Origin: a virus
Taxonomy: Duplodnaviria > Heunggongvirae > Uroviricota > Caudoviricetes
DNA length: 5,048 bases
Strand: one strand, 5' to 3'
Virus record (IMG/VR): IMGVR_UViG_2663763286_000012
Location: 1 to 5,048 of that record
The notes under the pieces were generated by a model, which saw nothing but the letters and a program-made list of their open reading frames with translations, had not been told where the DNA came from and did no database searches. Numbering within the stretch: position 1 is the stretch's first letter; each line of letters begins with the position of its first letter. Position numbers and translations under genes: made by a program. Positions 4,652 through 5,048 of the stretch are shown here, one piece after another.

Positions 4652-4667
4652 AGCATTCAAAGCAGAA

Positions 4668-5048
4668 TGAACCGCCCCGGAAATCCTGGAGACTAAACTC
4701 CCTGAGAAAGAGGTAAACAGGATGACTAAAAATACACGTTTTTCCCCCGAGGTCCGTCAACGGGCAGTTCGTATGGTTCTGGAAAGTCAGGGCGAATATG
4801 ACTCACAATGGGCGGCAATTTGTTCCATTGCCCCAAAGATTGGCTGTACACCAGAGACTCTGCGTGTGTGGGTTCGTCAGCATGAGCGGGATACCGGGAG
4901 TGGTGATGGTGGACTCACCACCGCTGAACGTCAGCGTCTGAAAGAGCTGGAACGTGAAAATCGTGAACTGCGCCGCAGTAACGATATCCTTCGCCAGGCT
5001 TCCGCTTATTTTGCGAAGGCGGAGTTCGACCGCCTCTGGAAAAAATGA
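4668..5048 (+). mobile_element. IS3-family insertion sequence, IS629/IS1203-like, left end and orfA only (the element continues past the window end)
   Basis: The lambda-like N leader ends at AGCAGAA (4667) and is followed by TGAACCGCCCCGG..., which has the 5'-TG terminus typical of IS3-family inverted repeats. orfA starts 54 bp inside. The exact boundary is accurate to within a few bp. Confidence 0.8.
4722..5048 (+). CDS. IS3-family transposase OrfA (HTH DNA-binding subunit), IS629-like
   Basis: 108-aa product [30 protein letters not shown]...[36 protein letters not shown], with an HTH and leucine-zipper-like C-terminus. The stop TGA is at 5046-5048, preceded by an A6 run. GAGG lies upstream of the ATG. 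Confidence 0.9.

Follow-up and report, generated by a model that had tools for sequence, protein, structure and literature searches.

Organization of the prophage region

The window (the whole stretch of DNA analyzed, 5048 bases) covers the immunity and replication region of a lambdoid prophage, reversed relative to the usual lambda map, and terminates at the stop codon of orfA inside an IS629 element, of which only the left end is covered. The prophage backbone comprises the following features.

Positions 410–1786, minus strand: DnaB-type helicase, 458 aa
Positions 1783–2670, minus strand: O-type replication protein, 295 aa, 292/295 identical to that of prophage L001
In the replication module, listed between O and cII: ORF of ~90 aa
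Positions 3028–3321, minus strand: lambda-like cII
Positions 3401–3432, minus strand: nutR, identical to lambda (CGCTCTTAC-ACATTCCA-GCCCTGAAAAAGGGC)
Positions 3441–3656, minus strand: cro-like HTH gene
Positions 3732–4427, plus strand: cI-type repressor (ORF call) with HTH_3 and Peptidase_S24 domains
Positions 4458–4489, plus strand: terminator-like hairpin (4458–4479) plus T-run, 3′ of cI

The cI, cro-like, cII, O, and helicase genes are intact ORFs, nutR and pL are intact sites, and decay is not evident. A megablast search of 5,426 complete E. coli genomes revealed prophages in many of them with 98–98.5% identity to the backbone. The O protein starts with MENQKTGY and has no insertion in comparison with its relatives; this 295-aa version is on record in 316 blocks. 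An identical 231-aa cI protein is on record with PF01381 and PF00717; its DNA-binding domain is of a non-lambda type, whereas the C-terminal cleavage domain is lambda-like. Exact-protein look-ups of cI, the helicase, the ~90-aa ORF, and O led to IS-free relatives only. Since nutR is identical to that of lambda, the phage depends on a lambda-type N; the prophage is lambda-type at both nutL and nutR, yet has a non-lambda immunity region. The replication module (410–3434, with the helicase, O, 90-aa ORF, and cII) is 99.5% identical to L022/L025, two stx-carrying prophage loci with a different immunity region, a relationship that, as judged from the sequences, is typical lambdoid mosaicism. [quoted passage not shown]

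A strong terminator hairpin with a T-run (12 pairs, 3052–3085, plus strand) lies antisense to the 3′ end of cII and matches the terminator of lambda oop RNA in sequence and position; an Rfam search of the window gave no match at this hairpin. Inside the O gene (minus strand), 12-nt periodic repeats resembling TCATGTGCGGCT occur at 2192–2223 and 2258–2303, and a G-rich 8-mer repeat at 2128–2143. By their sequence, the repeats in O (2128–2310) are probably the iterons of ori. Among the relatives, L009, which shares the identical cI, carries an IS21-family element (7751–9552, rve transposase and IstB) between the cro-like gene and cII in the pR operon. In L007 (5666–7453) and L046 (7885–10278), the helicase is enlarged to 595 and 797 aa, respectively, versus 458 aa, and a LAGLIDADG match suggests an intein or homing-endonuclease insertion.

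The pL promoter, its operator, and nutL

Downstream of cI, the window contains the control elements of the leftward early operon.

Positions 4553–4581, plus strand: pL promoter, TTGACC-17 nt-TACTAT
Positions 4566–4579: operator-like palindrome GTACAAATCGTACT between the pL hexamers
Positions 4588–4667, plus strand: pL leader RNA, +1 to +80, 77/80 identical to lambda (start assigned by homology)
Positions 4621–4651, plus strand: nutL, composed of boxA GGCTCTTAA (4621–4629), a 7-nt spacer, and boxB GCCCTGAAGAAGGGC (4637–4651)

Related operator-like sites are present in the cro/cI intergenic region at 3685–3698 and 3745–3758. In total, four operator-like matches were obtained versus 0.30 expected, two of the four being both strands of the 4566–4579 palindrome. 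The window differs from its closest relatives in three positions of the promoter region: the pL −35 hexamer is TTGACC (TTGACT in the relatives), the base two positions past it is A (G in the relatives), and +13 of the pL RNA (window 4600) is T (C in the relatives).

The boxB sequence, located at +50 to +64 of the pL RNA, is identical to that of lambda nutL. From +1 to +80, the leader deviates from lambda pL by three substitutions, one of which affects the first base of boxA (G instead of C in lambda, CGCTCTTAA to GGCTCTTAA) and leaves the core GCTCTTAA intact. A defect caused by this base change was considered and rejected, as the isolated phage Dewey has the same variant; its occurrence in both Dewey and the IS-free prophage L006 identifies it as a natural allele and not as damage. 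An earlier note on this DNA had described pL and nutL as intact, which is essentially right: promoter, operator, boxA core, and boxB are all present.

An IS629 copy follows the pL leader

At the right end of the window, the leader gives way to an insertion element.

Positions 4665–4667, no strand: GAA, end of the target sequence ahead of the IS, expected to be the first copy of a 3-bp target duplication (second copy outside the window)
Positions 4668–5048, plus strand: first 381 bp of IS629 (IS3 family), running off the window
Positions 4668–4692, plus strand: IS629 left inverted repeat (IRL) TGAACCGCCCCGGAAATCCTGGAGA, 21/25 positions matching the right inverted repeat
Positions 4722–5048, plus strand: orfA, complete, 108 aa, HTH_Tnp_1, co-oriented with pL
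Positions 5003–5048, plus strand: start of the ALIL frameshift pseudoknot with the A6 slippery run where orfA and orfB overlap, truncated at the end of the window

The sequence from 4668 to 5048 is identical in 381/381 positions to IS copies in E. coli O157:H7 (PA20, FDAARGOS_293, and others) and other STEC, and in 380/381 positions to complete 1310-bp copies in L014–L018. It shares 95.8% identity with the copy annotated as IS629 in Stx2 phage 1717 (FJ188381), and identities at this level greatly exceed chance. The terminal 4668–4692, opening with 5′-TG, has the same sequence as the left end of the phage 1717 IS629 and those of the 1310-bp copies in L014–L018; L012 and L019 differ from it in one IRL base. 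OrfA has exact counterparts, assigned to PF01527, in 4379 recorded blocks. In other copies of the same IS, orfA is followed by a DDE-type (rve) orfB in the −1 frame, the ATG of which overlaps the orfA stop codon (TGATG). The frameshift element was recognized by Rfam model RF01497 at model positions 1–46 of 117 with 49.2 bits (gathering score 50), the match being cut by the window end. The left inverted repeat, the full identity to STEC copies, the alignment to the annotated phage 1717 copy, and the complete plus-strand orfA with its PF01527 domain confirm an IS3-family, IS629-like element with transposase genes co-oriented with pL, as the earlier note had proposed.

Target duplications of 3–4 bp flank 5/7 full-length copies, which makes simple insertion the usual state of this element; the remaining 2/7 (L016 and L018) lack a duplication and are thus rearranged. 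IS629 occupies up to 52 places per genome. The same variant interrupts the pL operon of another lambdoid prophage (L015 5947–7256), also in pL orientation; it is flanked by a TAT duplication and lies between a 52-aa ORF downstream of kil and the gene for the ERF recombinase. An IS629-type copy in L018 (8695–9908, minus strand) was called as a fused 404-aa OrfAB (HTH_Tnp_1 and rve) for which no frameshift is needed.

The insertion point and its empty counterparts

The 16-nt spacer AGCATTCAAAGCAGAA (4652–4667) links boxB to the IS sequence TGAACCGCCCCGGAAATCC..., which opens with TGAACCGCCCCGG and starts at 4668 directly after the spacer. A switch at 4668, 16 nt past nutL boxB, had been noted before; these coordinates are exact and can be read directly from the sequence, and the alignment to the lambda pL leader breaks at 4667/4668. 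Among the matches listed from the megablast search of the 5,426 complete E. coli genomes (H1–H24), all prophage matches extending into the leader stop at 4667. In a search of 50,697 phage records, phage matches stop at query position 238 (4667), and IS629 matches start at query positions 236–239, mostly at 239 (4668).

The site is spanned by five IS-free relatives, namely lambda, L001, L006, L022/L025, and the isolated phage Dewey. These empty sites read ...AGCAGAA followed by GGCTTTGG..., or by AGCTTTGG in L022/L025, and proceed into the remainder of the leader, with an N36-type or N-like gene 95–250 nt past the insertion point. The equivalent position in lambda is between 35503 and 35502, which follows +80 of the pL RNA and precedes the N start codon by 142 nt. 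The insertion falls between boxB and the GT-rich boxC, within the loop of a small hairpin predicted for the uninterrupted leaders (CAAAGC-AGAAG-GCUUUG). A reading in which TGAACCGCC... is native leader and not an IS end has virtually no likelihood left and is refuted, as the earlier note had anticipated in calling it an IS terminus: the relatives continue otherwise, with GGCTTTGG or AGCTTTGG and then N, and the same sequence terminates 1310-bp elements that lie at unrelated loci.

The junction between pL leader and IS629 was not found in complete E. coli genomes, phages, plasmids, IMG/VR, JGI metagenomes, or GTDB representatives. The 25-mer junction query used for IMG/VR and the JGI metagenomes detects either orientation of the IS because both inverted repeats begin with TGAACCGCCCCGG. 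An exact-protein look-up of the 44-aa ORF that spans the junction showed that it is not on record, and no report of IS629 or another IS in the nutL-N leader was found in the literature. The insertion site is new; the element and this route of crippling a prophage are both well known.

Predicted RNA structures and transcription signals in the element

RNA folding predicted a hairpin across the junction (window 4648–4677, GGGC..CAUUC / GAAUG..GCCC) with −11.0 kcal/mol that would compete with the boxB stem (−7.9 kcal/mol). The predicted boxB pairing amounts to 0.26–0.89 here versus ≥0.99 in the native leaders of lambda and L001. With shuffled IS ends, boxB pairing was lowered as far in 1–14/200 cases, so that the predicted effect is only moderately unusual; the calculation ignores co-transcriptional folding and N binding. 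A second predicted pairing involves AUCCUG of the IRL (4683–4688) and CAGGAU (4718–4723), the latter covering the orfA start codon. This stem, predicted from the sequence, would form in transcripts begun upstream of the IS and could prevent the translation of such read-through RNA, similar to the fold-back protection against outside transcription in IS10 and IS50.

A full-length proxy copy of the IS was searched for intrinsic terminators in the direction of pL, and a single weak site was found, which is within chance expectation. At the hypothetical junction of the IS right end with the N leader, no outward promoter was identified by standard hexamer criteria. The Shine-Dalgarno sequence of orfA is good; in combination with the overlap of the orfB ATG with the orfA stop codon, this may leave the IS RNA largely protected from Rho. 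From these features, polarity of the element is predicted to be probably mostly Rho-dependent and partial.

Expected consequences for N expression and prophage induction

We favor, with a probability of roughly 0.6, a simple transposition of IS629 ahead of N, with induction of the prophage attenuated or delayed and not blocked. The simple insertion taken by itself is quite probable. The 1310-bp element, of the variant widespread among O157:H7 and other STEC, would have transposed into the pL leader and would be complete, followed by the GAA duplication, the remainder of the leader, and N. The expected right junction would then read ...GGGGCGGTTCA (IS right end), followed by GAA and GGCTTTGG....

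N, which comes first in the pL operon, is required for polymerase to pass the early terminators on both lambda arms (tL1, tR1, and tR2). After repressor cleavage, ~1.3 kb of IS would have to be transcribed from pL before N is reached. Part of the unmodified polymerase would be lost on the way, mainly because Rho terminates transcription where the IS RNA is poorly translated. N synthesis would then start late and stay low, and the delayed-early genes under both pL and pR would be expressed at a reduced level. With nutL ahead of the IS, whatever N is present, be it the prophage's own or that of a co-resident lambda-type prophage, should enable polymerase to read through the element. Such N-modified readthrough would lead to weak or delayed, possibly all-or-none induction and not to an absolute block. 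Induction is expected to be attenuated, delayed, and possibly bimodal, and the prophage is not expected to be dead. The translation of N is known to be autoregulated in cis. By placing nutL at a long distance from the ribosome-binding site of N, the insertion should uncouple this autoregulation.

The earlier note had called the insertion strongly polar and the prophage induction-defective. In its strict form, this means full polarity with no N at all and a prophage that is repressible yet wholly noninducible, an outcome that we regard as unlikely. It would fit the 1.3 kb of foreign RNA that separates pL from N, the lowered boxB pairing next to the junction hairpin, and a stem at the orfA start codon that could leave orfA untranslated and the RNA exposed to Rho. 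Against it speak the only moderately unusual boxB effect in comparison with shuffled ends and a folding model that leaves co-transcriptional folding and N binding aside. The lack of a convincing sense terminator in the proxy copy, the good orfA ribosome-binding site, and a nutL located upstream, where N acts on the very transcript that crosses the IS, indicate that the claim was overstated. The related statement that derepressed pL sends transcription into orfA holds for transcription; the predicted stem between IRL and orfA start may limit translation of the read-through RNA.

Whether N still follows the element depends on what lies to its right. The IS may mark the boundary of a rearrangement, in which recombination between IS629 copies or an IS-mediated adjacent deletion or inversion removed or relocated N and the remainder of the pL operon and left an immunity and replication remnant without any N. 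We consider this improbable, if less so than the other alternatives to simple transposition. The window stops inside the IS with the far flank outside, two of the seven full-length copies (L016 and L018) lack a target duplication, and IS629 has been held responsible for genomic deletions in O157 (PMC9943667); on the other side, five of the seven copies examined are duplication-flanked simple insertions, and the window outside the IS is intact, 98–99% identical to intact prophages, with no evident decay. An assembly artefact, mis-joined or collapsed at a multicopy IS so that the junction is absent from the real genome, has a very small chance of being correct. Assemblers often break or mis-join at an element such as this one, found at as many as 52 places in one genome, the window ends within the IS, and the junction occurred in none of the collections searched. 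However, the join lies exactly at the terminal TG of the IS with the target intact to its last base, as in transposition, the leader runs without a break into 381 bp of IS, and a chimeric join would seldom hit the first base of an inverted repeat.

Comparison with known systems

In the transposition reading preferred here, IS629 behaves as described for lambdoid prophages of enterohemorrhagic E. coli (EHEC), where the same element in the same kind of host DNA is expected to cause diversification or loss of function (PMC4587872, PMC2669165). IS629, the most abundant IS in O157, has been documented as a major cause of polymorphic prophages and inactivated genes in EHEC (PMC4587872; PMC9943667); examples are the PST subtypes of Stx2a phages with IS629 insertions (PMC4587872) and the IS-disrupted nu1 gene of prophage Sp4 in O157 Sakai (PMC2669165). 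The sites reported in EHEC comprise roi, lysozyme, methyltransferase, nu1, and intergenic late regions, none of them in the pL-nutL-N leader.

The leader itself resembles the lambda nutL/N leader in an identical boxB, the same spacing and position relative to pL, and an identical nutR; unlike in lambda, boxC, the RNase III site, and the N ribosome-binding site would be displaced beyond the IS. Polar IS insertions in the lambda early operons and in gal are classical, for example the IS2 near cII in lambda r32, and N-modified transcription from pL-nutL was reportedly found by Adhya, Gottesman and de Crombrugghe in 1974 to suppress IS polarity. The present case is similar in that the IS lies between a promoter-nut unit and the downstream genes; in the classical case, polarity results from termination in the IS and is relieved after modification of polymerase at nut. 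It differs in that the gene past the IS would be N itself and in that it concerns a natural prophage and not a laboratory mutant. With N itself past the IS, relief of polarity would need the very product that is impaired, which creates a feedback loop.

IS3-family insertions in STEC can be reversible: lacZ::IS600 in STEC O121:H19 is reverted by the IS-excision enhancer (IEE) (PMC9397093), and excision of IS629 has been reported (PMC9943667). Our case shares with these systems an IS3-family element of STEC origin that would inactivate a function which excision could restore; unlike in them, neither an iee gene nor a product of excision was observed. It is conceivable, at a very low probability, that the insertion acts as an SOS-coupled reversible lock in which pL fires the IS629 transposase and IEE excises the IS to make the phage inducible again. 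Repressor cleavage would then direct strong pL transcription into the transposase genes, N together with the upstream nutL would render this transcription termination-resistant, and prophage induction would be coupled to a burst of IS629 transposase. In IEE-positive STEC, excision of the IS could restore a fully inducible phage in a subpopulation.

Significance

The insertion probably represents an ordinary kind of prophage damage that weakens the expression of N. It involves no new principle, as the disruption of prophages by IS629 and the N-dependent relief of IS polarity are both established. If it is simple and polar, a single IS hop would make an otherwise intact lambdoid prophage poorly inducible while its immunity is kept. 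With nutL before the IS and N after it, the locus would provide a natural test case in which N must help to transcribe its own gene across the IS. For STEC, this bears on the sequence-based prediction of prophage induction, gene transfer, and toxin release by Stx phages.
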